DNA of 64,000 nucleotides from an uncultured Acidobacteriaceae bacterium (lineage in GTDB: Bacteria > Acidobacteriota > Terriglobia > Terriglobales > Acidobacteriaceae): NCBI GenBank assembly GCA_963819145.1, contig CAWFVB010000011.1, forward strand, positions 55,234 through 119,233, read 5' to 3'. The translations under genes were made by a program, and so were the position numbers. A model generated the notes under the pieces. That model was not told the DNA's origin. It ran no database searches and saw only the letters and a program-made list of their open reading frames with translations. Within the stretch, counting starts at the first letter, position 1; each line of letters starts with the position of its first letter. Positions 7,211-18,940 of the stretch are shown one piece after another.

Positions 7211-8254
7211 GTGCGAGGACACGACTTGAAGCTAAACGAGGATCCCCATCGCCGGCTGAACGCACTGACCAACGAGTGGGTGCTGGTTTCTCCTCAGCGT
7301 GCCACGCGACCCTGGCAGGGAGAAGTGACGTGGCTGGAAGAGAAAGCGGAACCCGCCTATGACCCGAATTGCTACCTCTGCCCCGGAAACACTCGGGCGG
7401 GAGGGATTGCCAATCCTCCTTACTCTTCGACATTCGTCTTTGAAAACGACTTCGCTGCTCTGAAGCCCCAAGTCGCCTGTGATCGTCGCGACGTCGAAAA
7501 CAAGGGATTGCTCGTCGCCGAGTCCGAGCCGGGTATTTGCCGTGTTCAATGTTTTTCTCCCCGCCACGACCTGACGTTGGCAACCATGGGACTGGCTGAG
7601 ATTGAGTTGGTGGTTCGCACCTGGATGGGACAGTTCCGGGAGTTAGGTGCCCTGGACTCCATCGACCACGTGCAGATATTTGAAAACCGCGGGGCGATGA
7701 TGGGCGCCAGCAATCCGCATCCCCATTGCCAGATCTGGGCGACCGCTTCGATTCCGGACGCGCCTGCGAAGGAACTCCTCGCACAGAGTGCGTACCGGAA
7801 GGCGAATGACGCTTGCTTGCTGTGCGATTACATGGGATTGGAAGATCAGCAGCAGGTGCGGGTCGTGTGGCAGAATGCGGGGTTTGTTGCACTGGTGCCC
7901 TTCTGGGCCCTGTGGCCATTTGAGATCCTGGTGTGCAGCCGCCGGCACATGGGAAACATGCAGGAATTCACCGCGGAGGATGTCCGCACTCTCAGTGAAA
8001 TTCTTCACCGCGTCACTTCGACCTACGACAAGGTTTTCGGAGTCCCTTTCCCTTATTCGATGGGCTTCCACCAGACGCCGACCGATGGCCAGGATCACCC
8101 GGAATGGCACTTCCATGGGCATTTCTATCCGCCGCTGCTGCGCTCCGCGACGGTCCGGAAGTTTATGGTGGGGTTCGAGATGCTGGGAACTCCCCAACGC
8201 GATATCACTCCCGAAATCGCCGCTGAACGGCTTCGCAAACTGGCGTGTCAGTAG
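7211..8254 (+). CDS. galT: Galactose-1-phosphate uridylyltransferase
   Basis: 347 aa. Zn-site CYLCPGN, active-site HPHCQ (SNPHPHCQIWA), and full-length similarity to class I GalT. Confidence 0.93.
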   Translation: MRGHDLKLNEDPHRRLNALTNEWVLVSPQRATRPWQGEVTWLEEKAEPAYDPNCYLCPGNTRAGGIANPPYSSTFVFENDFAALKPQVACDRRDVENKGLLVAESEPGICRVQCFSPRHDLTLATMGLAEIELVVRTWMGQFRELGALDSIDHVQIFENRGAMMGASNPHPHCQIWATASIPDAPAKELLAQSAYRKANDACLLCDYMGLEDQQQVRVVWQNAGFVALVPFWALWPFEILVCSRRHMGNMQEFTAEDVRTLSEILHRVTSTYDKVFGVPFPYSMGFHQTPTDGQDHPEWHFHGHFYPPLLRSATVRKFMVGFEMLGTPQRDITPEIAAERLRKLACQ

Positions 8255-8328: not shown

Positions 8329-8907
8329 TTGGGCGGGGACCCTCGTATGCGGGAGACCATCAAGCGCCTTTGGCCGGAGGTCGACTGGATTCAAGATCCC
8401 CAATTGCGCGAACAGGTTGTCGAGACCTGGATCAAAGCGCTGGAACGCAGCACCCTCAAGGCCGATGATCTGAACCAGATTCCGTTCACCCTGCTGGTTC
8501 CGAACTGTCCCATCACTTTCATGGAACACAAACGCTGCGTTGTGCATATCGCACGCGACAGTGCCGCGGCCATGCAAGATTTCATGGGTCGCGCCCTGCC
8601 CGTGCACATGGACACGGTGATCGCAGGCGCGATCCTGGCCGACGTAGGCAAACTGCTGGAGTACGAACTCGGCCCCGATGGGAAGAGCCGGCAAAGCGAG
8701 CGCGGGGAGGCGTTGCGCCATCCATTTACCGGAGTCGCGCTGGCGCTGGAGTGTGGAGTGCCGGAAGCCGTTTGCCACATCATCGCCTCTCATGCCGCCG
8801 AAGGCGACCTGGTCAAGCGAACCACAGAAGCCTTTATCGTGCATCACGCCGACTTCATGGCGTTCCTGCCGTTCAAGAATCCGAAAAACATCAAGGTACC
8901 GAAATAA
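8329..8907 (+). CDS. HD-domain protein (metal-dependent phosphohydrolase superfamily)
   Basis: 192 aa. H...HD-like pattern (VVHIARDS...ILADVGK...ASHAAEGD) typical of HD-domain proteins. An alternative ATG lies at 8347. The gene ends 10 nt before the PrpD-like gene. Confidence 0.7.
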   Translation: MGGDPRMRETIKRLWPEVDWIQDPQLREQVVETWIKALERSTLKADDLNQIPFTLLVPNCPITFMEHKRCVVHIARDSAAAMQDFMGRALPVHMDTVIAGAILADVGKLLEYELGPDGKSRQSERGEALRHPFTGVALALECGVPEAVCHIIASHAAEGDLVKRTTEAFIVHHADFMAFLPFKNPKNIKVPK

Positions 8908-8917
8908 GGAGAGAGCC

Positions 8918-10396
8918 TTGTCCACGAAGCCGATTTCACCTGCTAAAGAAACAGTCACGGCCAAGATATCGCGCTGGGCGGCCGGTCTGCAGTATAAGGA
9001 TCTCTCCTCCGAAGCCATCTACCAAGCCAAACGCTTTCTGCTTGATTCGCTGGGCTGCGCTTTGGGTGGATACCAGCAGCACGACGTAAAGATCGCGCTG
9101 GAAGTTCTCGATGAAGTCGCCGGCATGGGGCTGGCTACGGTGGTCGGCACTGGCCGTCACGTTGATCCGGTATCGGCTTCGCTGGCCAACGGCCTCATGA
9201 TTCGTTGCATGGATTACAACGACATTTACTGGAAGCAGGATCCTTCGCATCCTTCGGACATTTTCCCCGCAGCGATCGCGGGGTGCGAGCACCTGGGCAG
9301 CAACGGCAAGGAACTCATTGTCGGACTCATTCTCGGGCACGAGTTCGAGATGCGCTTCTGCGAGGCAGCATTCCCGGGAATTCGCGAGCGTGGCTGGCAT
9401 CACGCCACCCTCACGGCGTTCGTTTCACCCATCGTCGCGGGACGCACGATGCAACTCACCTGGGAACAAATCCAGCACGCGATCGGAATCTCTGCCAGCC
9501 GCCACTGCACTCTGGGCGCAGTCACCGCCGGCAAGCTGACCATGATGAAGAACACGGTCGATCCGATGGCCACGCAAAGTGGAGTGTTCGCCGCCCTGCT
9601 TGCGGTAAAGGGCTACACGGGCCCGGAGCACGTGATCGACGGCAAAGAAGGACTGGCGCACGTCTTCGGCCCGCAGTGGAAGCTAGAACTCCTGACCGAC
9701 GGTTTGGGAGAGTCGTGGCGCATTACGCAATGCGGCATGAAGGCGTTTCCAACCGAGGCTCTGACCCATACACCGATTTCGGCAGTGCTCGACCTGGTCA
9801 AGACAAACAACGTGCATCCGGAGCAGGTGGAGAAAATTCAGATTCGCTCGCTCGCCCGGGCAGCCGACATTCTCTCCGACCCCAGCAAGTACGATCCGCG
9901 CAACAAAGAAACCGCAGACCATTCGTTGCCATACGTGATCGCAGCGGCGCTGGTCGAACGTCAGGTCACTCCCGCTCAGTTCACGATCGAGAAAATCACC
10001 AACCCGAGGATTCGGGAGCAACTGAACAAGATCGAGGTGGTCGCGGATCCCGAGATTGAAAAGGTATTTCCAGCACTACAGAGGGTGATTGTGAATATCA
10101 ATACAACCGATGGACGGACATTCAGCAAGCAACTGGATTATCCCAAAGGCGATCCACGCAATCCCTTGACCGATCAAGAAGTCGAGGAAAAGTTCTCGGC
10201 GCTCGCGGACGGAGTGCTCTCGAAGAGCGCACAGAAGCGAGTACAGGATGCGGTCTGGAACCTGGAACGAGTCGGCTCGGTGAGCGAACTGATGACGCTG
10301 ATGGAAGCTGACGTTCGCAAAGCGAAGCCCGCGGTCGCGAAGAGAAGAATAAAGCCACGTGCGAAACAGAAGAGTCGCAAGCCTGTGCTCGCATAG
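8918..10396 (+). CDS. MmgE/PrpD family dehydratase (2-methylcitrate-dehydratase-like)
   Basis: Tracked ORF 8678..10396 overlaps the HD gene. The PrpD-like sequence begins at TAKISRWAAGLQYKDLSSEAIYQAKRFLLDSLGCALGG. An in-frame TTG at 8918 follows AAGGAG by 6 nt. Confidence 0.85.
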   Translation: MSTKPISPAKETVTAKISRWAAGLQYKDLSSEAIYQAKRFLLDSLGCALGGYQQHDVKIALEVLDEVAGMGLATVVGTGRHVDPVSASLANGLMIRCMDYNDIYWKQDPSHPSDIFPAAIAGCEHLGSNGKELIVGLILGHEFEMRFCEAAFPGIRERGWHHATLTAFVSPIVAGRTMQLTWEQIQHAIGISASRHCTLGAVTAGKLTMMKNTVDPMATQSGVFAALLAVKGYTGPEHVIDGKEGLAHVFGPQWKLELLTDGLGESWRITQCGMKAFPTEALTHTPISAVLDLVKTNNVHPEQVEKIQIRSLARAADILSDPSKYDPRNKETADHSLPYVIAAALVERQVTPAQFTIEKITNPRIREQLNKIEVVADPEIEKVFPALQRVIVNINTTDGRTFSKQLDYPKGDPRNPLTDQEVEEKFSALADGVLSKSAQKRVQDAVWNLERVGSVSELMTLMEADVRKAKPAVAKRRIKPRAKQKSRKPVLA

Positions 10397-10425
10397 AGCG
10401 CCGACACCGAACGTGGCCGCAGCAG

Positions 10426-12417
10426 TTGGAGTCCACCATGCCGCAGACAATTGTCGAAAAGATCGCGCAAGCCCACCTCGCCGATGGCCCGAACAGACCG
10501 GTGCGCGCAGGCGATTTCGTTTCCATCCGGCCGCTTCATGTGATGACGCACGACAACACGTCGGCCGTGATGACCAAGTTCAAGGCTATCGGCGCCAAGA
10601 GAATATTCGACCCGAAGCAACTTGTCTTTGCCCTCGATCACGATATTCAGAATCACGACGAGGCCAATCTGAAGAAATATCGCTTGATCGAAGTCTTCGC
10701 CAAGGAGCACGGAGTCGACTTCTATCCGGCGGGCTCGGGCATCGGTCACCAGATCATGATCGAGCGAGGATATGTGGTGCCGGGATCGTTCGTAGTTGCC
10801 TCCGATTCCCACTCCAACATGTATGGCGCATTGGGCGCGGTAGGCACGCCGATCGTGCGCACCGATGCCGCGGCCGCATGGGCCACCGGCGAATTCTGGT
10901 GGCAGGTGCCGCGTACGATTCAGGTCGTCTTCGAAGGCAAGCTGGCCGAGGGTGTCAGCGGCAAAGACGTGATCATTACTCTGTGCGGGCTCTATAACCA
11001 CGACGAGGCGCTGAACGCCGCGGTTGAATTCTGCGGGCCGGGCGTAGCGAGCCTTCCGATGGATGCGCGCTTTTCCATTTCCAATATGAGCACGGAATGG
11101 GGGCCGCTTGTGGGCTGGTTTCCCGTGGACGAGGTCACGATCCATTACCTGCGCGGTGTTCGCCAGCAGCTGCGGGAGCAGGGTGTCGAGCGATTCACCG
11201 AAAAGGACATCGAGAGATGGCATGCCGCTCCGCCGCAACCCGATCCTGACGCGGAATATTCCGCACGAATTGTCCTCGATCTGAGCCAAGTCGTGCCGCA
11301 TGTCTCCGGCCCCGACTCGGTTCAGACCATGCAATCGGCGGCCGGGATCGAAAAGAAGAAGATCGCGATTCAAAAGGCCTATCTGGTTTCCTGCGTGAAC
11401 TCCCGCGTCGAGGACCTTGAAGCCGCAGCCTGGGTCTTGTGCGGAAAAAAAGTCGCGCCGACAGTAGAGCTTTACGTTGGAGCGGCGAGCGCGTGGACGC
11501 AGCATGAGGCCGAGAAGCGCGGCGTATGGCAGGCGCTGCTCGATGCTGGAGCGATTCCCCTACCGCCGAGCTGTGGACCCTGCATCGGACTCGGAACCGG
11601 ACTGCTGGAAAAAGGCGAAGTCGGCATCTCGGCCACCAACCGCAACTTCAAAGGCCGGATGGGATCGCGCGATGCCCAGTGCTATCTCGCCAGTCCGGAA
11701 GTTGTTGCAGCATCGGCGATTGCGGGCTACATCACCGGGCCGAGGCGGTTCGCGGAGCGCAATGTCGCTCGCCAGTATCAGGAATTCTTCACCGGCGGGC
11801 ACCACGCCGAGCATGTGGAAATTCTGTCCGGATTCCCGGAGCGGGTGAACGGACGCCTTGTGTTCGTGCCGCAGGACAACGTCAACACCGACGCGATTTA
11901 CGGCAAGGACTACACATACCGCGACGACATGACGCCGGAGATGATGGCTCGGGTCATTATGGAGAACTATGACCCGCAATTCGCCGCGCGAACTCGGGGC
12001 GGTGACATCCTTGTCAGTGGATTCAACTTCGGCACTGGATCGAGCCGCGAACAGGCGGTCACCTGCCTGAAGGCCAAAGGCATCTCCCTGGTTATCGCGG
12101 CCAGCTTTTCGCAAACCTACCTCCGTAACGCTTACAACAACGGCTTTTTGTGCATCGAGGTGCCCGGGCTGGTGAAGTGCCTGCGCCAACAACTCGCAAC
12201 CGAGGCCTACGAAAAAACGATCATCCCTGGCGAGAACATAGAGATTGATTTCACTTCCGGCACAGTTGCATGGCGCGGGGAGCGCTTTGCTTTCCCACCG
12301 CTCGGCGATGTGCCGCAATCGTTGGTAATTGCCGGTGGAGCTGAGAATGTAGTCGCAAAGAAGCTCCAGCTGATTCAGAAAGAGCATCCAGAACAGGCTT
12401 TCGTCTCAGGAGATTAA
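10426..12417 (+). CDS. Aconitase-family hydratase with fused large and small subunits (Lys4-type homoaconitase / LeuCD-like)
   Basis: 663 aa. VMTHDNT, LDHDIQN, GIGHQIM, VASDSHSNMYGALG and CGPCIG motifs of the catalytic domain, plus a C-terminal swivel (LeuD-like) domain with GFNFGTGSSREQA. Confidence 0.9.
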   Translation: MESTMPQTIVEKIAQAHLADGPNRPVRAGDFVSIRPLHVMTHDNTSAVMTKFKAIGAKRIFDPKQLVFALDHDIQNHDEANLKKYRLIEVFAKEHGVDFYPAGSGIGHQIMIERGYVVPGSFVVASDSHSNMYGALGAVGTPIVRTDAAAAWATGEFWWQVPRTIQVVFEGKLAEGVSGKDVIITLCGLYNHDEALNAAVEFCGPGVASLPMDARFSISNMSTEWGPLVGWFPVDEVTIHYLRGVRQQLREQGVERFTEKDIERWHAAPPQPDPDAEYSARIVLDLSQVVPHVSGPDSVQTMQSAAGIEKKKIAIQKAYLVSCVNSRVEDLEAAAWVLCGKKVAPTVELYVGAASAWTQHEAEKRGVWQALLDAGAIPLPPSCGPCIGLGTGLLEKGEVGISATNRNFKGRMGSRDAQCYLASPEVVAASAIAGYITGPRRFAERNVARQYQEFFTGGHHAEHVEILSGFPERVNGRLVFVPQDNVNTDAIYGKDYTYRDDMTPEMMARVIMENYDPQFAARTRGGDILVSGFNFGTGSSREQAVTCLKAKGISLVIAASFSQTYLRNAYNNGFLCIEVPGLVKCLRQQLATEAYEKTIIPGENIEIDFTSGTVAWRGERFAFPPLGDVPQSLVIAGGAENVVAKKLQLIQKEHPEQAFVSGD

Positions 12418-12422
12418 CGAAG

Positions 12423-13667
12423 ATGGCAAAACATACCGTGGTGACAATGCCGGGAGATGGAATCGGCAATCAGGTTCTTCCCGAGGCTGTCCGGATTCTG
12501 AAAGCAGTTGGGCTCGACGCCGAGTACGTCCATGCCGATATCGGCTGGGACTGTTGGTGCCGCGAAGGCAACGCCCTGCCGCAGCGCACCGTAGAACTGC
12601 TGGCCAAACACAGACTTGGACTCTTTGGAGCCATCACGTCCAAGCCCAAGAAGCAGGCTGAAGCCGATCTGCGGCCGGAACTTCGAGGCAAGGGTTACTC
12701 GTATTTCAGCCCCATCGTCACCATGCGACAGCGGTTTCATCTCGACACGTGTATTCGGCCTTGCATTTCGTTTCCCGGCAATCCGCTGAACTTCATTCGT
12801 AAGCACGCCGGCGGAGGTTTCGACGAACCGCTGGTCAACGTCGTCGTCTTCCGGCAAAACACCGAAGGGCTTTATGCCGGTGTGGAGTGGACGAATCCGC
12901 CGGAACAGATTCAGGCCGCGCTCGCGACGCATCCCAAATTCAAACCGTTCGGCTCTATTGCCGGACCAGACCTCGCCGTCTCGGTTCGCGTAATTACACG
13001 GAGCGCAGCGCGCAAGATTTGCACGGCTGCTTTCGAGTGGGCAAAGAAATACGGCTATAAATCCGTAACCATCTGCGAGAAGCCGAACGTGCTGCGCGAA
13101 ACCTCCGGCATGATGGAAGAGGAAGCAAAATCTGTGGCGAAGGAGTATCCGGGCATCGCATTGTGGTCTACCAACATTGACGCACAGACGATGTGGCTGA
13201 CCAAGAACCCGGAAGACTACGGTGTTGTCGTGGCCTCGAACCTGTTTGGCGACGTGATCTCCGATGCATTCGCAGGCTTGATCGGAGGCCTGGGCTTCGC
13301 CGCATCCGGCAACATTGGGGATGAAGTAGCAGTTTTCGAGCCGACTCATGGGTCCGCGCCGAAATATGCGGAACTCGATCCGCCGATCGTGAACCCGATC
13401 GCCATGTTTCTCTCGGCGGTAATGATGCTGGAGCATGTCGGCGAAATCGAGAAAGCTCGGCGCATCCGGGAAGCCATCGCGGCCGTCGTGATGGAGGGCA
13501 GGGTCCGCACTTATGACATGATGCGCATCCCGGGCGGGGCCAAAGCCATCAGTCAGGGCGCGGCCAGTACGGTGCAGATGACGGACGCGGTTTTAGCGAA
13601 GTTGGCGCAGCCCTCGAATTTCACCGAGGAGCGTGCCGAGTTTGCGGAAGTGGGAAGCGATATATAG
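12423..13667 (+). CDS. Isocitrate/isopropylmalate/homoisocitrate dehydrogenase family protein
   Basis: 414 aa. N-terminal MPGDGIGNQV, VFRQNTEGLYAG, NLFGDVISD and EPTHGSAPK motifs of beta-decarboxylating dehydrogenases. Confidence 0.9.
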   Translation: MAKHTVVTMPGDGIGNQVLPEAVRILKAVGLDAEYVHADIGWDCWCREGNALPQRTVELLAKHRLGLFGAITSKPKKQAEADLRPELRGKGYSYFSPIVTMRQRFHLDTCIRPCISFPGNPLNFIRKHAGGGFDEPLVNVVVFRQNTEGLYAGVEWTNPPEQIQAALATHPKFKPFGSIAGPDLAVSVRVITRSAARKICTAAFEWAKKYGYKSVTICEKPNVLRETSGMMEEEAKSVAKEYPGIALWSTNIDAQTMWLTKNPEDYGVVVASNLFGDVISDAFAGLIGGLGFAASGNIGDEVAVFEPTHGSAPKYAELDPPIVNPIAMFLSAVMMLEHVGEIEKARRIREAIAAVVMEGRVRTYDMMRIPGGAKAISQGAASTVQMTDAVLAKLAQPSNFTEERAEFAEVGSDI

Positions 13668-13672
13668 CGGCG

Positions 13673-14887
13673 GTGGATCTCATGACGGTGGCAATCGAAA
13701 CTCGTACAGGCGAAGCCGGACACTGGGGCGCCGACATTCGCTCTGATCTTCATGTGCGGATCGAACCCAGTGAACGCGGGGGTACGCATATTGAACTCGA
13801 GTCGCGCGTCGAGCCTTACTATGGCGACTCGATTCGAAGGCAGACCGAAGAAGTGCTCGAAGCGCTCGGCGTTCGGCACGCGCATGTTCTGATTCACGAT
13901 GAGGGTGCGCTGCCTTTCGTGATTGCGGCGCGCATCGAAGCGGCAGTCCGGCGGGCGGGACTGGGCGAAGGCACGCGCGTGCTCCCGGAGAAAATCGCGC
14001 TGCCCGAGTCTTCCGCCCGCGACAGGCTCCGGCGGTCGCGACTCTATCTTCCCGGCAGTGAGCCGAAGTACTTCATCAACGCCGCACTCCACGGGGCTGA
14101 CGCCATCATTCTCGACCTCGAGGACTCAGTACACGCCAGCGAGAAGGACGCTGCCCGCCTGCTTGTGCGCAACGCGCTGCGCGCCGTGGATTTTCTGCAG
14201 TGCGAACGCATGGTGCGAATCAACCAAATCCCACTCGGATTGGAGGATCTCGACGAGATTGTGCCCGAATCTCCCGACCTCATCCTGATTCCCAAGGTTG
14301 AGGACCCGGCTCAGATCATCGAAGCGGGCAAGCGTATTGCCACAATCAAAGCAGACTACGGCATCACGCGTTCGGTCTGGTTGATGCCGATTCTTGAGTC
14401 CGCGCTTGGCATCGAGAATGCGTTCGCGATCGCCCAGGCAAGCGATAAGATTGTCGCGTTGACGATTGGACTGGAAGACTACACCGCCGACCTTGGCGTG
14501 GTGAAGAGTTCGACCGGCGCGGAATCGCTCTATGCCAGGCAGCGAGTGGTAAACGCGGCTCACGCCTCCGGAGTGCAAGCCATCGATTCCGTCTTCGGCG
14601 ATGTCGGCGACTTGGAGGGCCTGCGCGCCTGGAGCATGAATTCCCGCACCCTGGGTTTTGAAGGAATGGGTTGTGTCCATCCTCTGCAGATAGCGATGAT
14701 TCACGACGCGTTCGCTCCTACATCGTCTGAAATCGAAAAAGCCCGAAGAATCGTCGCCGCTTACAACGACGCGCAACAGAAGGGCCTGGGGGTAGTGAGC
14801 CTCGGCTCGAAAATGGTCGACGCTCCGGTAGTGCAGAGGGCTCTGAAACTAATGGCTCGCGCTCGGGCAATGGGTCTCGTGGACTAA
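13673..14887 (+). CDS. citE: Citrate-lyase gamma (acyl-carrier, CitD) fused to beta (citryl-ACP lyase, CitE) subunit
   Basis: 404 aa. Residues 1-100 align to CitD: IRSDLHVRIEPS matches the prosthetic-group Ser region, and HDEGALPFVIAARIEAA matches DDKGALDCILRARLEA. The remainder is HpcH/CitE-like (SRLYLPGSEPKY...ADAIILDLEDSV). Confidence 0.85.
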   Translation: MDLMTVAIETRTGEAGHWGADIRSDLHVRIEPSERGGTHIELESRVEPYYGDSIRRQTEEVLEALGVRHAHVLIHDEGALPFVIAARIEAAVRRAGLGEGTRVLPEKIALPESSARDRLRRSRLYLPGSEPKYFINAALHGADAIILDLEDSVHASEKDAARLLVRNALRAVDFLQCERMVRINQIPLGLEDLDEIVPESPDLILIPKVEDPAQIIEAGKRIATIKADYGITRSVWLMPILESALGIENAFAIAQASDKIVALTIGLEDYTADLGVVKSSTGAESLYARQRVVNAAHASGVQAIDSVFGDVGDLEGLRAWSMNSRTLGFEGMGCVHPLQIAMIHDAFAPTSSEIEKARRIVAAYNDAQQKGLGVVSLGSKMVDAPVVQRALKLMARARAMGLVD

Positions 14888-14913
14888 AGACCCGTGCAGG
14901 AAGAGGAAACATC

Positions 14914-16482
14914 GTGCCAATCCTGGACAAGACTGAAATAGCCGCAAACGCCGCAGGGCGCATGGTGCCGGAGAGTGTCAACGGCCGCTCGCAAGTTCCC
15001 TACATGGGCGTCGGGAAATACTGCCCGCTCGATGGCAAAGCCTCACCCCCGATCCGCAGCGCAGCAGATTATCCGACGAACGGCGACAAACGGGTGCCCG
15101 ATTTCGAAACCGCGCTGCGCAAGTGCGGACTGCGGGACGGTATGGTCGTGTCGTCGCATCATCACCTTCGCGATGGCGACCGCGTCGCTCTCATGGCTCT
15201 CGAGACCGCGGCTAGAATGAAAGTCAAGGATCTGATGTGGTTTCCCAGCGCTTCGTTCCCTTCACAAAAAAGCGCGATTGAGTTGATGGAATCGGGAGTA
15301 ATCGACCACATCGAAGGCAGCATGAACGGGCCACTCGGCGACTACTGCACACAGGGCAAGATGCGCGGGATGGGGGTTCTGCGATCGCACGGTGGACGCT
15401 GGCAGGCGATTCAGGACGGAGAGGTGCACATTGACATCGCGGTCATCGCCGCACCGTCGGCCGATCCTTTCGGCAACTGCGATGGCTCGCATGGAAAATC
15501 GGCTTGCGGTTCCCTGGGCTTCGCCCTGGCCGACTCCATCTACGCGGACCACGTCATTGTCGTAACCGACAATCTGGTTCCCTTCCCCTGCGTTCCGTGG
15601 CAGATTCAAGGCAACAACGTGGACTATGTGGTGGAGGTCGATTCTATCGGCGATCCAGCGAGGATTGTCTCTGGCACGACGCAAGTCACACGCTCGCCCG
15701 ACCGCTTGCGCATCGCGGAATTCGTCGCCCGATTCCTGCGCGATGCGGGCATCATGCGAAACGGGTTTTCGTTTCAGGCCGGCGCTGGAGGAATCGCACT
15801 GGCCTTCATCAGCTACCTCAAGGAGATGATGAAGCAAGCGGGAGTGAAGGCGCGCTTCGTGCGCGGCGGCTCGACCAAGCACCTGGTGGAACTGCTGGAA
15901 GAAGGACTCTGCGACTACATTCTCGACGGGCAAACGTTCGACCTTGACGGCGTGCGGTCCCTGGCGAACAACCCGCGCCACATTGCGACTTCGCCGTTTA
16001 CTTCGTACAACTACCATGGCAAGGGAAATTTCGCGTCGCTGGTGGATGCGGTGGTGCTGGGCGCGACCGAAGTGGATACGAATTTCAACGCCAACGTAGT
16101 AACTCATTCCGACGGCCGGCTTCTGCACGGCATTGGCGGATGGCAGAACTGCCTCGCAGCCGGATGCACGATTCTCGCTGTACCCTCGTTTCGCGACAGA
16201 ATTCCCGTGATTGTGGACGAAGTAACAACGCTGTGTGGACCGGGCGAGCTGATCGATGTCGTCGTAACCGAGCGCGGCATCGCCATCAACCCGCGGCGGG
16301 CAGATCTCATGGAGGCAGTGAAACACTCGAAGCTGCCGATCCGCCCTCTACAGGAAATCAAGAGGGAGGTCGAGCGCATCTGCGGCGGAAAGCCTCATAA
16401 ACCGAAGCCCGGGAATCGGCCGGTTGCCGTCGTTAAGTGGGTGGATGGCACGGTGCTCGATACGGTCTGGCAGATTCGGTGA
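14914..16482 (+). CDS. citF: Citrate lyase alpha subunit (citrate CoA/ACP-transferase)
   Basis: 522 aa with full-length CitF-like sequence (VVSSHHHLRDGD, FQAGAGGIALA, GGWQNC...). Confidence 0.9.
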   Translation: MPILDKTEIAANAAGRMVPESVNGRSQVPYMGVGKYCPLDGKASPPIRSAADYPTNGDKRVPDFETALRKCGLRDGMVVSSHHHLRDGDRVALMALETAARMKVKDLMWFPSASFPSQKSAIELMESGVIDHIEGSMNGPLGDYCTQGKMRGMGVLRSHGGRWQAIQDGEVHIDIAVIAAPSADPFGNCDGSHGKSACGSLGFALADSIYADHVIVVTDNLVPFPCVPWQIQGNNVDYVVEVDSIGDPARIVSGTTQVTRSPDRLRIAEFVARFLRDAGIMRNGFSFQAGAGGIALAFISYLKEMMKQAGVKARFVRGGSTKHLVELLEEGLCDYILDGQTFDLDGVRSLANNPRHIATSPFTSYNYHGKGNFASLVDAVVLGATEVDTNFNANVVTHSDGRLLHGIGGWQNCLAAGCTILAVPSFRDRIPVIVDEVTTLCGPGELIDVVVTERGIAINPRRADLMEAVKHSKLPIRPLQEIKREVERICGGKPHKPKPGNRPVAVVKWVDGTVLDTVWQIR

Positions 16483-16636: not shown

Positions 16637-18940
16637 TTGACGCCAACCCGCTTACTCACTTCTTGCTGCGTTGTTGTTTTCATTGCACAACTGAGCTGGG
16701 CACAATCCTCATCCATGAAAACGGTTGACCCTGCGCAGCTCTCGGGGTACACAGCTCAATCTTCGAAGCCGGAGCGGGAGTGGGAGAAGAAATTTCGGGA
16801 CGGCATCGTTGCCGAAAACTTGCGTCAGAACATGCAGCGCTTGAGCGCTCGTCCGCACCACGTGGGCTCGCCCTACGACAAAGACAATGCCGAGTGGATT
16901 CTCTCGAAGTTCAAAGAATGGGGATTTGATGCGCACATCGAAACCTTCCAGGTGCTGTTCCCGACGCCCAAAGAGCGCGTGGTGGAAATGATGGAGCCCA
17001 CGAAGTTCCGCGCGAAGCTGCAGGAGCCGGCGGTTGCCGGCGACCCGACCTCCAATCAGACTGCCGAGCAGTTGCCGACCTACAACGCCTACTCGATCGA
17101 CGGAGACGTGACGGCGCCGCTGGTCTATGTGAACTATGGCAACCGCGACGATTACGAGCAACTCGACCGCCTGGGGATTTCGGTCAAGGGCGCGATCGTC
17201 ATCGCCCGCTACGGCGAAGGCTGGCGCGGCATCAAGCCGAAAGTCGCGGCGGAGCACGGCGCGATCGGCTGCATCATCTATTCCGATCCCAAGGACGACG
17301 GCTACTTCAACGGCGACGATTATCCCAAGGGCGGGTGGCGGCCGCGAGGAAGGCGTTCAGCGCGGCAGCGTCATGGACACCGACTATCCCGGCGATCCTC
17401 TGACGCCCGGAGTTGGCGCGACGGCCGACGCCAAGCGGCTCGACATCAATGACGCGAAGACGATCACCAAGATTCCGGTGCTGCCGATTTCCTACGGCGA
17501 TGCCTTGCCGCTGCTTTCCGCGCTCGCAGGGACCGGTTGCGCCCGAAAGCATGGCGAGGCGCGTTGCCCATCACCTATCACGTCGGTCCCGGGCCCGCGC
17601 AAAGTCCATCTGAAGGTCGCATCGAACTGGGATCTGAAGCCGGTCAACGACGTCATCGCCACCATGCGCGGGTCGCGAGGCCCCGGATCAGTGGGTGATC
17701 CGCGGCAATCACTACGACGCCTGGGTCAACGGCGCCGATGATCCAATGTCGGGCATGTCAGCGGTTCTGGAAGAGGCGCGCGATGCTGGGCGAACTGCAC
17801 AAGCAGGGATGGAATCCGAAGCGAACCATCATCTATTGCGCGTGGGACGGCGAAGAGCCGGGACTGCTGGGTTCGACCGAGTGGGTCGAGACTCACGGCG
17901 ACGAACTGCAGAAGCACGCCGTCGCCTACATCAATTCCGACAGCAACGGCCGCGGATTCTTTCACGCTGCGGGATCGCACGATCTCGAAAAGCTCATCAA
18001 CGATGTGATTCGCGAGATCAAAGATCCGGAGAAAGATATCTCGGTGTGGCAGCGAGCGCGTCTGCCGCGCATCGCGAACGCGAAGAATCCGGAGGAACGC
18101 GGCGAAATTCGGAAGCGGGCTGAACTGGCGATCGGCGCGCTGGGAGACGGTTCCGACTACGCTTCGTTCCTCGACCATGCCGGCATCTCGGCGCTGAACA
18201 TCGGCTACGGCGGAGAAAACGACGCCGATGCGTACCATTCGATCTACGACGACTTCTACTGGTACACGAAGTTCGTCGACACCGATTTCTCCTACGGACG
18301 CGCACTGGCGCAGACCGGAGGCACAGCCGTCCTGCGTCTGGCGGATGCCGAACTGATTCCCTACGAATACGTTGCGAATGGCCGACACTATCGCCAAATA
18401 CGTGTCCGAACTGGAGAAACTGCTCAAAGACAAGCAGGACGAGATCAAGGAGCGCAACCTGGAATTGAAAGAAGGAGTTTTCACGGCCGTCGCCGATCCG
18501 CGCAAGACTTCTGTGCCTCCACCACGCGAAGCCGAGCCTCCGTACATGAATTTCGCGCCGCTGAAGAATGGCGTGGATGCCATCAAGAAAGCGCGGACCG
18601 TTACCAGGCTGCGGCCGCGAAAGCACAAACCGAAGGCGCGACGCCGCTCTCCGCGCGAGCACTGGACTCGCTGAACACCGATCTCCTGTTGATCCAGCGC
18701 ACGTTCCTCACCGAGCGTGGACTCCCCGAGCGGCCATGGTTCAAGCACCAGGTCTACGCGCCGGGAGCGTATACCGGCTACGGAGCCAAGCCACTCGCGG
18801 CCGTCCGCGAGTATATGGACGAAAAGAAATGGGCTGAGGCCGATGCTCAAGTTCCCGGCGTGGCGAAAGTGCTGGAGGATGTTGCCGCGGCCATTGGAAA
18901 AGCGGCCGATGAACTGGAATCGGCTGAATCGGGCCGGTAA
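16637..18940 (+). pseudogene. Secreted M28-family peptidase of the glutamate-carboxypeptidase-II / transferrin-receptor-like type, multiply frameshifted
   Basis: One protein reads through ORFs 16637..17452, 17136..17741, 17413..17613, 17695..18123, 17738..18940 and 18372..18674. It has a signal peptide, a PA domain, an M28 core (VIRGNHYDAW, CAWDGEEPGLLGSTEW, YINSDS) and a TfR-like dimerisation domain. There are at least 8 frame changes (about 17345, 17529, 17551, 17600, 17676, 17782, 18365-18380, 18600). Confidence 0.8.

Follow-up and report, generated by a model that had tools for sequence, protein, structure and literature searches.

In fungi, the upper alpha-aminoadipate pathway runs through homocitrate synthase (Lys20/21), aconitase together with Lys4, and homoisocitrate dehydrogenase (HICDH; Lys12). 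Both aconitase and Lys4 are needed for the isomerisation of homocitrate, whereas a single aconitase is enough for that of citrate. Here we describe a six-gene operon from an uncultured Acidobacteriaceae bacterium, located in a 64,000-nucleotide stretch of contig CAWFVB010000011.1 (the window), which shares with this pathway a fused Lys4-type hydratase, an apparent two-enzyme isomerisation and a dehydrogenase with an SPIV substrate loop. However, the operon lacks homocitrate synthase and carries in its place a lyase composed of CitF and a CitD-CitE fusion. It also differs in that the first (de)hydratase belongs to the PrpD family and not to the aconitases, the cofactor residues of the dehydrogenase are of the NADP type, the operon also encodes an HD-domain protein, the direction is likely degradative, and later enzymes of the LysX or Lys2 type were not found. 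The operon is a real, conserved and uncharacterised module. We propose, giving the idea an even chance, that it is a "homo" (C7/C6) tricarboxylate module that would link 2-oxoadipate with 2-oxoglutarate and acetate by running the upper aminoadipate pathway in reverse.

Other described systems resemble the operon in part. Citrate (pro-3S)-lyase, CitDEF, of Escherichia coli and Klebsiella (EC 4.1.3.6) consists of the same three families in the same carrier-beta-alpha order, but in the operon CitD and CitE are fused and the lyase sits among hydratase and dehydrogenase genes instead of in a citrate-fermentation operon. The citrate-cleaving arm of the reductive tricarboxylic acid (rTCA) cycle, made up of ATP-citrate lyase (ACL), aconitase and isocitrate dehydrogenase (IDH), likewise combines carboxylation, isomerisation and carbon-carbon cleavage in one cluster. 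In contrast to that arm, the operon would use homo-series enzymes and an ATP-independent lyase that yields acetate and not acetyl-CoA, and its role appears to be heterotrophic and accessory rather than carbon fixation. In the methylcitrate cycle (PrpD with AcnB, or AcnD with PrpF), PrpD-family and aconitase-family enzymes share dehydration and rehydration, and across lineages an enzyme of the PrpD family can be exchanged for one of the aconitase family, as appears to be the case here. The protein in the operon is not a PrpD orthologue, however, the operon has neither methylcitrate synthase nor methylisocitrate lyase, and it continues with a dehydrogenase that methylisocitrate, a tertiary alcohol, could not serve. 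The known fates of lysine-derived 2-oxoadipate are conversion to glutaryl-CoA by 2-oxoadipate/2-oxoglutarate dehydrogenase and O2-dependent conversion to D-2-hydroxyglutarate by HglS (10.1101/2020.01.30.927905). The proposed route would start from the same substrate after the same upstream saccharopine or lysine-dehydrogenase steps, but would require neither O2 nor glutaryl-CoA, would deliver the carbon to 2-oxoglutarate and acetate after CO2 fixation, and would be redox-neutral together with the upstream steps. In the literature, we found no published description of this gene combination, of a "homocitrate lyase" or of a reverse aminoadipate route.

Domains of the window proteins were assigned with Pfam and NCBIfam profiles, and the equivalog cut-offs quoted are the curated NCBIfam values. 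An initial reading of the window made without database searches (the sequence-only reading) had called the hydratase Lys4-type. It passes the fungal homoaconitase model TIGR00139 with 736 bits (cut-off, 529.9), carries the large and small domains in one chain, has the homoaconitase large subunit 4kp2 as its best match in the PDB, and retains a small-domain loop, GKDYTYRDD, that is kept among its orthologues. By this curated model the protein belongs to the Lys4 family, as that reading had suggested.

The dehydrogenase had been described as a beta-decarboxylating enzyme of the IDH family, and this assignment stands: it is an Iso_dh protein (PF00180, 249 bits) whose substrate loop appears to be of the homoisocitrate type. 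Its nearest solved relatives are the NAD-dependent isocitrate dehydrogenase (NAD-IDH) 6lky and Thermus HICDH. The loop GYSYFSPIVTMRQ aligns with GYSSPIVALRK of Schizosaccharomyces pombe HICDH (3ty3); GYSYFSPIV of the window protein pairs with GYSSPIV and carries the fungal HICDH loop signature, and 20 orthologues from a wide range of phyla all retain residues Y94, S96, P97, I98 and V99. The Ser113/Asn115 pair that marks the gamma-carboxylate site of isocitrate dehydrogenase is incomplete. In a HMMER alignment to 6lky the IDH Ser is kept and Ile replaces the Asn equivalent to E. coli IDH Asn115, and no IDH model cut-off is reached. At the position of Arg85 in Thermus HICDH the protein has Val.

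In E. coli IDH, K344/Y345, Y391 and R395 are known determinants of NADP use. K314/Y315 of the window dehydrogenase, which are invariant in its family, align with K344/Y345, and Y364 and a basic residue occupy the positions of Y391 and R395, whereas the NAD enzymes (6lky and Thermus HICDH) have D-I where K314/Y315 stand. We predict from these residues that the dehydrogenase is of the NADP type, unlike the biosynthetic HICDHs (Lys12 and the Thermus enzyme), which are NAD enzymes. An NADP(H)-type enzyme would fit a reductive carboxylation.

The second gene of the operon starts with TTG and is preceded by a GGAGAG ribosome-binding site. Its product has both superfamily domains (PF03972, 241 bits; PF19305, 164 bits), but the earlier label "PrpD-type" proved too specific. 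The PrpD equivalog models gave only 81 to 103 bits against cut-offs of 458 to 950, and the nearest solved structures are IDS-epimerase (139 bits) and IRG1/cis-aconitate decarboxylase (134 to 93 bits), with PrpD itself at only 68 to 50 bits. Judged by these scores the protein is not a PrpD orthologue. Because an aconitase-family enzyme replaces the PrpD-like gene in other phyla, we infer that the protein is a putative homocitrate/cis-homoaconitate (de)hydratase, which would act on the tertiary alcohol homocitrate. Two enzymes always share the isomerisation, either a PrpD-like and a Lys4-like protein or two HacA-family paralogues.

Where a Claisen synthase might have been expected, the operon encodes the citrate-lyase-type enzyme noted in the sequence-only reading. 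The CitD-CitE fusion matches PF06857 (70.7 bits at residues 23-95) and PF03328 (176 bits at 121-337), and CitF matches PF04223 (432 bits); CitF is 58-90% identical across phyla and always adjoins the fusion. In contrast to the CitDEF enzymes, both catalytic subunits lie below the equivalog cut-offs for citrate lyase. The CitE domain scored 273 bits against TIGR01588 (cut-off, 443) and can be placed in the fold family PF03328 only, and CitF scored 482 bits against TIGR01584 (cut-off, 501). Alignment with E. coli CitD (MAFFT and BLASTP) places the prosthetic-group residue Ser14 opposite Arg23, Gly15 opposite Ser24 and Asp16 opposite Asp25. By this alignment the canonical prosthetic-group position is not a serine, and a nearly invariant Ser lies one residue on; 69 of 72 sequences retain the RSD motif that includes Ser24. 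Neither CitG nor CitX was detected in 11 genomes, namely the window's own, five operon-bearing congeners (90-100% complete) and five genomes from other phyla, two of them whole chromosomes. A search for CitC in the window's own genome returned a best match of 20.7 bits (cut-off, 262). On this evidence the lyase is not a classical citrate lyase, and its earlier description as ACP-dependent has become doubtful. Isolated citrate lyase subunits can work with free acetyl-CoA, and the simplest mechanism would be that CitF and CitE use free acetyl-CoA as a catalytic cofactor.

Further forms of the lyase were seen among its relatives. In loci L052 (9604-12765) and L079 (9247-12783), CitD-CitE and CitF are apparently joined in one open reading frame (ORF) of about 930-1180 amino acids (P0177, 943 aa; P0203, 927 aa), and in such lineages they appear to form what would be a single-chain lyase. 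In L006 (115-2192), a more distant fused CitDE relative directly follows the alpha subunit of a class-I fumarase/mesaconase-type enzyme, an arrangement that suggests that proteins of this branch of the fusion family act as citramalate lyases.

Taken in the proposed direction, the route would begin with the NADP(H)-type IDH-family enzyme, which would reductively carboxylate 2-oxoadipate to homoisocitrate. The Lys4-type hydratase would dehydrate homoisocitrate to cis-homoaconitate, and the PrpD-family enzyme, or a second aconitase-family enzyme in other phyla, would hydrate this to homocitrate. CitF would then transfer to homocitrate a carrier activated as an acetyl-thioester, which may be free CoA or an unconventional group borne by the CitD domain, and the CitE domain would split the homocitryl-thioester into 2-oxoglutarate and the regenerated acetyl-thioester; acetate would be released. 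The net reaction would be 2-oxoadipate + CO2 + NADPH -> 2-oxoglutarate + acetate, that is, the upper alpha-aminoadipate pathway backwards with a lyase in place of the irreversible homocitrate synthase, and it would provide an oxygen-independent outlet for lysine-derived 2-oxoadipate. Substrate, direction, the part played by each enzyme and the use of free CoA are what we infer here from gene content, co-conservation, motifs and genomic associations. Catabolism of homocitrate, or a reversed elongation cycle, had been one of several options in the sequence-only reading, and it is the one that the comparative evidence favours.

The module is not restricted to the window. When an alignment of the fused CitD-CitE protein was scanned against one genome per GTDB species, 80 loci were recovered, from Acidobacteriota, Gemmatimonadota, Planctomycetota, Ignavibacteriota, Bacteroidota, Cloacimonadota and Marinimicrobia as well as from Aminicenantes, KSB1, WOR-3, Eisenbacteria and Krumholzibacteriota. 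When the six window proteins were mapped to these loci, about 30 of the 80, from other species and phyla, had the same families grouped together. All six genes stand together, in an order that varies by phylum, in about 23 loci. A second layout (L035, L044, L049, L056 and L075) has no PrpD-like gene and combines two fused aconitase paralogues of the HacA/IPMI family (about 600 aa) with genes for the HD protein, the dehydrogenase and the lyase. In the third, found in Bacteroidales, an mce-mmdABCD methylmalonyl-CoA decarboxylase operon is followed by CitDE-CitF, then by an M20 peptidase gene and by the genes for the dehydrogenase and the HD protein, with two aconitase paralogues elsewhere in the genome. 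Clustering of the ORFs in the 20-kb neighbourhoods of the 80 loci showed that only the six module families are conserved; no transporter, regulator or 2-oxoadipate consumer was co-conserved with the module among these ORFs.

Several details of the Bacteroidales layout were recorded. CitDE-CitF comes right after the Na+-pumping methylmalonyl-CoA decarboxylase operon in L065 (5782-12746) and likewise in L043, L059, L060, L077 and L082; the upstream operon comprises epimerase, carboxyltransferase, gamma, biotin carrier and beta genes. The M20 peptidase precedes the dehydrogenase and HD genes in L054, L058, L065 and L077.

Of 18 genomes from the genus of the window, 8 have the PrpD-like gene, and precisely these 8 also have the IDH-like gene; module-type CitF occurs in all 8 and in a ninth. 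From this matching presence and absence it follows that the module is an accessory unit, gained and lost as a whole. Its self-contained nature, put forward on the sequence alone, is thus borne out by co-conservation across phyla and co-distribution within the genus. We also rejected the possibility that ordinary leucine or TCA genes merely lie beside an unrelated lyase: LeuA, LeuB, LeuC, AcnA and two further Iso_dh-family genes are found elsewhere in the source genome, and the six genes travel together. Neither of the two outcomes that had been named in advance as speaking against a module, an ordinary LeuCD/LeuB set next to an unrelated lyase or a lack of co-conservation, was observed. In one congener (G006, C5:183851-191559) the operon seems decayed, with the PrpD-like gene in two frames, partial matches to CitF and the dehydrogenase, and an in-frame stop in CitF, which could reflect either pseudogenisation or assembly errors.

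In other lineages, genomic association ties the module to lysine breakdown. In two Cloacimonadota loci (L051 and L063), genes for saccharopine dehydrogenase (SDH) and a protein like lysine-ketoglutarate reductase (LKR) lie directly upstream of CitDE-CitF on the same strand. The SDH (439 aa) has the Sacchrp_dh_NADP and C domains, with the saccharopine reductases of yeast and Magnaporthe as nearest PDB entries, and the LKR-like protein (431 aa) is of the AlaDh_PNT family. A further Cloacimonadota locus, L044, forms one same-strand run, LKR-CitDE-CitF-IDH-HD-Acn-Acn. SDH-type genes (at least 220 bits) were found in 28 of 50 module genomes of other phyla, and LKR adjoins SDH in 3 of 5 genomes checked. 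A dehydrogenase for piperideine-6-carboxylate (P6C)/aminoadipate semialdehyde, which is a catabolic enzyme, scored above its equivalog cut-off in 24 of 38 module genomes outside Terriglobia, often beside SDH, and in 1 of 14 controls. In an even draw of 71 Bacteroidales genomes at least 90% complete, 29 of the 31 genomes with module-type CitF encoded SDH, as did 15 of the 40 that lack this CitF (odds ratio, 24; uncorrected Fisher P of about 1e-6), counts that ignore shared ancestry. No conserved neighbours were found for stand-alone SDH genes in three genomes. An Aldedh gene near CitDE in L049 was rejected as an aminoadipate-semialdehyde dehydrogenase; it is a pyrroline-5-carboxylate (P5C) dehydrogenase.

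Among members of the window's genus, 7 of 9 genomes with the module encode a Sacchrp_dh-family protein, compared with none of 10 genomes without the module. An operon of LKR, SDH and P6C dehydrogenase occurs in only two of the nine, G005 and G015 (contamination, 8-9% in both). The other five congeners have a lone 396-aa Sacchrp_dh-family gene whose product is nearest to 3abi of Pyrococcus, scoring 122 bits against it, 68 against saccharopine reductase and about 20 against carboxyspermidine dehydrogenase. Entry 3ABI is an L-lysine 6-dehydrogenase (PMC10413350). In G010 the lone gene (L094:7801-8991) adjoins an M61 peptidase; its orthologues are in G006, G013, G014, G016, G005 and G015, within the genus only in operon carriers.

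These associations allow a wider and more tentative proposal, to which we give somewhat less than an even chance: the operon may be the core of a complete oxygen-independent "reverse aminoadipate" catabolism of lysine and thus a third fate of 2-oxoadipate. Lysine would be converted to aminoadipate semialdehyde by LKR/SDH or lysine 6-dehydrogenase, and then via 2-aminoadipate to 2-oxoadipate, and the full route would amount to Lys + 2-oxoglutarate + CO2 -> 2 Glu + acetate, redox-neutral overall. Such a route would be used by many bacteria of soil, sediment and digesters, and its lyase, with an unconventional cofactor, and its PrpD-family homocitrate hydratase would both be enzymes of a new type.

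Several observations weigh against the proposed function. The dehydrogenase reaches the cut-off of no HICDH model (AksF2, 270 against 540 bits; AksF, 252 against 500; iso_homocit_dh, 134 against 680), nor of any other NCBIfam equivalog, and CitF misses the citrate-lyase cut-off only just. CitDE-CitF is found without the other module genes in three acidobacterial genomes (G001, G043 and G045), and a lone CitDE-CitF fits a lyase that acts on a common metabolite such as citrate. Neither LKR, SDH, a lysine-dehydrogenase-like gene nor a P6C-dehydrogenase orthologue was found in the window's own genome, which is 84% complete, and P6C dehydrogenase was found in none of 12 other Terriglobia genomes. 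The co-occurrence counts are not corrected for common descent. Finally, by a rough free-energy estimate modelled on the reactions of citrate, the net reaction would lie near equilibrium, and therefore thermodynamics would not set its direction.

The best of the alternatives, though in our judgement an unlikely one, is that the same enzymes work on the citrate series as an ATP-independent citrate-cleaving arm (2-oxoglutarate + CO2 -> isocitrate -> citrate -> oxaloacetate + acetate), serving citrate or glutamate fermentation, an unconventional reductive TCA branch, or oxidation of citrate to 2-oxoglutarate beside citrate fermentation. Annotations of CitF and CitE name citrate lyase, the score of CitF comes close to the equivalog cut-off, and the solitary CitDE-CitF genes described above would be accounted for, as would a DASS/CitMHS-type transporter near CitDE in L049. 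Moreover, Thermus HICDH-type enzymes accept isocitrate too. The ACL-aconitase-IDH clusters of rTCA organisms share the logic (PMC8542988), and the genome paper of Ignavibacterium album read CitF with fused CitE/CitD as an ATP-independent citrate lyase, for which it proposed a role in citrate fermentation or an unconventional reverse TCA cycle, and drew no connection between the lyase and its neighbouring genes (PMC3362086). Against the citrate series, however, the hydratase passes the fungal homoaconitase model and no aconitase model, and the dehydrogenase has the fungal HICDH loop and no equivalent of IDH Asn115. A single aconitase would do for citrate, yet two enzymes are always retained, and the genome already holds AcnA as well as other IDH-family genes. 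Nor would this reading explain why the module is associated with LKR, SDH and P6C dehydrogenase.

Reversal of the homocitrate route on the same substrates seems less likely again. This would be a synthase-free and ATP-free elongation, acetate + 2-oxoglutarate -> homocitrate -> 2-oxoadipate + CO2 + NADPH, that supplies 2-oxoadipate or 2-aminoadipate for lysine or another product. Every step is reversible in principle, the estimated overall free energy is close to zero, and at cellular 2-oxoglutarate levels condensation with acetate is far less unfavourable than it is for oxaloacetate. Furthermore, the fungal members of the LKR and SDH families, LYS1 and LYS9, operate in the biosynthetic direction. 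But LysX was found in none of 19 genomes of the window's genus, and a Lys2-type reductase in none of five genomes that have both module and SDH (best match, 35 bits; cut-off, 1030); therefore 2-oxoadipate made by the module would have no known aminoadipate route on to lysine. On these grounds we rejected lysine biosynthesis by the LysW-type aminoadipate route and by the fungal-type route. The catabolic P6C dehydrogenase is common and adjoins SDH, half of the genus lacks the module yet must still make lysine, and no 2-oxoadipate consumer is conserved nearby. Given the homo series, we consider the degradative direction roughly three times as probable as the synthetic one.

Improbable, in our view, is a different substrate altogether, such as citramalate/methylmalate, a longer (homo)n-citrate, a hydroxycitrate-type compound or a plant or soil tricarboxylate, with the PrpD-family protein perhaps an isomerase or decarboxylase and not a hydratase: that protein is closest to an epimerase and to decarboxylases, the dehydrogenase reaches no model cut-off, ACP-type citramalate lyases exist, a fused CitDE relative lies beside a class-I fumarase/mesaconase-type gene (L006) and most Terriglobia carriers lack saccharopine genes, but the match of the hydratase to the Lys4 equivalog and the invariance of the SPIV loop favour homoisocitrate, the aconitase-family gene that replaces the PrpD-like gene argues for a (de)hydratase, and the lysine-gene association backs the C6/C7 series.

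If the homocitrate reading is correct, a widespread six-gene module, carried by Acidobacteriota, Gemmatimonadota, Planctomycetota, Bacteroidota, Ignavibacteriota, Cloacimonadota and several candidate phyla, would represent an undescribed means of disposing of lysine-derived 2-oxoadipate without oxygen or glutaryl-CoA. It would mean that the logic of 2-oxoacid elongation becomes reversible once a lyase replaces the synthase, as in the reductive TCA cycle. Four large families that are now unannotated or misannotated would gain functions: the "citrate lyase" fusions without cofactor machinery, the PrpD-family clade, the bacterial Lys4-like proteins and the NADP-type HICDH-like clade. Genome-based metabolic models at present read the module genes as citrate lyase, aconitase/LeuCD and IDH/LeuB, and this may lead to false predictions of citrate fermentation or of the rTCA cycle.

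The operon comprises six intact ORFs that run from 8347 to 16482 of the window. Successive gaps of 10, 29, 5, 5 and 26 nt agree with the earlier description of six same-strand genes 5-29 nt apart. That description left the first gene, for the HD-domain protein, unnamed, and CitD and CitE turned out to be one fused gene. All six proteins are full length relative to their homologues, and nearby downstream genes of the window carry frame breaks. A scan for promoters and terminators within the operon gave no internal signal exceeding chance.

Genes of the operon, with positions in the window
Product	Position	Strand	Length	Profile
HD-domain protein	8347..8907	+	186 aa	Pfam/NCBIfam
MmgE/PrpD-family protein (N+C domains)	8918..10396	+	492 aa	PF03972, PF19305
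Fused Lys4-type aconitase-family hydratase (Aconitase + Aconitase_C)	10426..12417	+	663 aa	TIGR00139
Iso_dh-family beta-decarboxylating dehydrogenase	12423..13667	+	414 aa	PF00180
CitD-CitE fusion	13673..14887	+	404 aa; 401 aa from ATG at 13682	PF06857 + PF03328
CitF-type acyl-transferase, lyase alpha subunit	14914..16482	+	522 aa	PF04223

The HD-domain protein encoded by the first gene matched PF01966 with 25.6 bits and TIGR00277 with 31.9 bits. Its HD dyad reads A-D (ILADVGK), and the H...HD...D metal-binding motif is incomplete; most orthologues have A, I or C instead of the dyad His, and a canonical H-D was seen in two distant ones only. The protein is nonetheless a regular companion of the module: it is conserved to the same degree as the module enzymes, its orthologue adjoins the IDH-like or Acn gene in module loci, and an orthologue was found elsewhere in 36 of the 46 genomes whose module locus was without one. 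Its predicted structure (predicted local distance difference test, pLDDT, 92) gave Foldseek matches to the generic HD fold only, and searches with Pfam/NCBIfam, sequence-to-PDB comparison, the protein atlas and Foldseek yielded no function beyond that fold.

On the left, the operon is bordered by galT (galactose-1-phosphate uridylyltransferase; 7211-8254, + strand), whose 3' end lies 92 nt before it and which is not kept next to the operon in other genomes. On the right, a protein with PA, peptidase_M28 and TFR_dimer domains, similar to glutamate carboxypeptidase II, spans 16637-18940 (+ strand) in at least two ORFs (16637-17452 and 17738-18940).

The source is a Terriglobia metagenome-assembled genome (MAG), 84% complete with 6.4% contamination, and close homologues carry the name Candidatus Sulfotelmatobacter. 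It contains a second copy of all six genes on contig C20 (29106-37974; locus L002:6101-15020, minus strand), with 70-87% protein identity and an additional ORF of the DinB_2 family that separates the PrpD-like gene from the aconitase-family gene. We rejected this copy as a true paralogue within the same genome. Because the aroC-fmt-rsmB genes that flank it have a syntenic second copy on contig C10 (80, 60 and 56% identity, respectively), contig C20 probably represents a second, related genome within the MAG bin.

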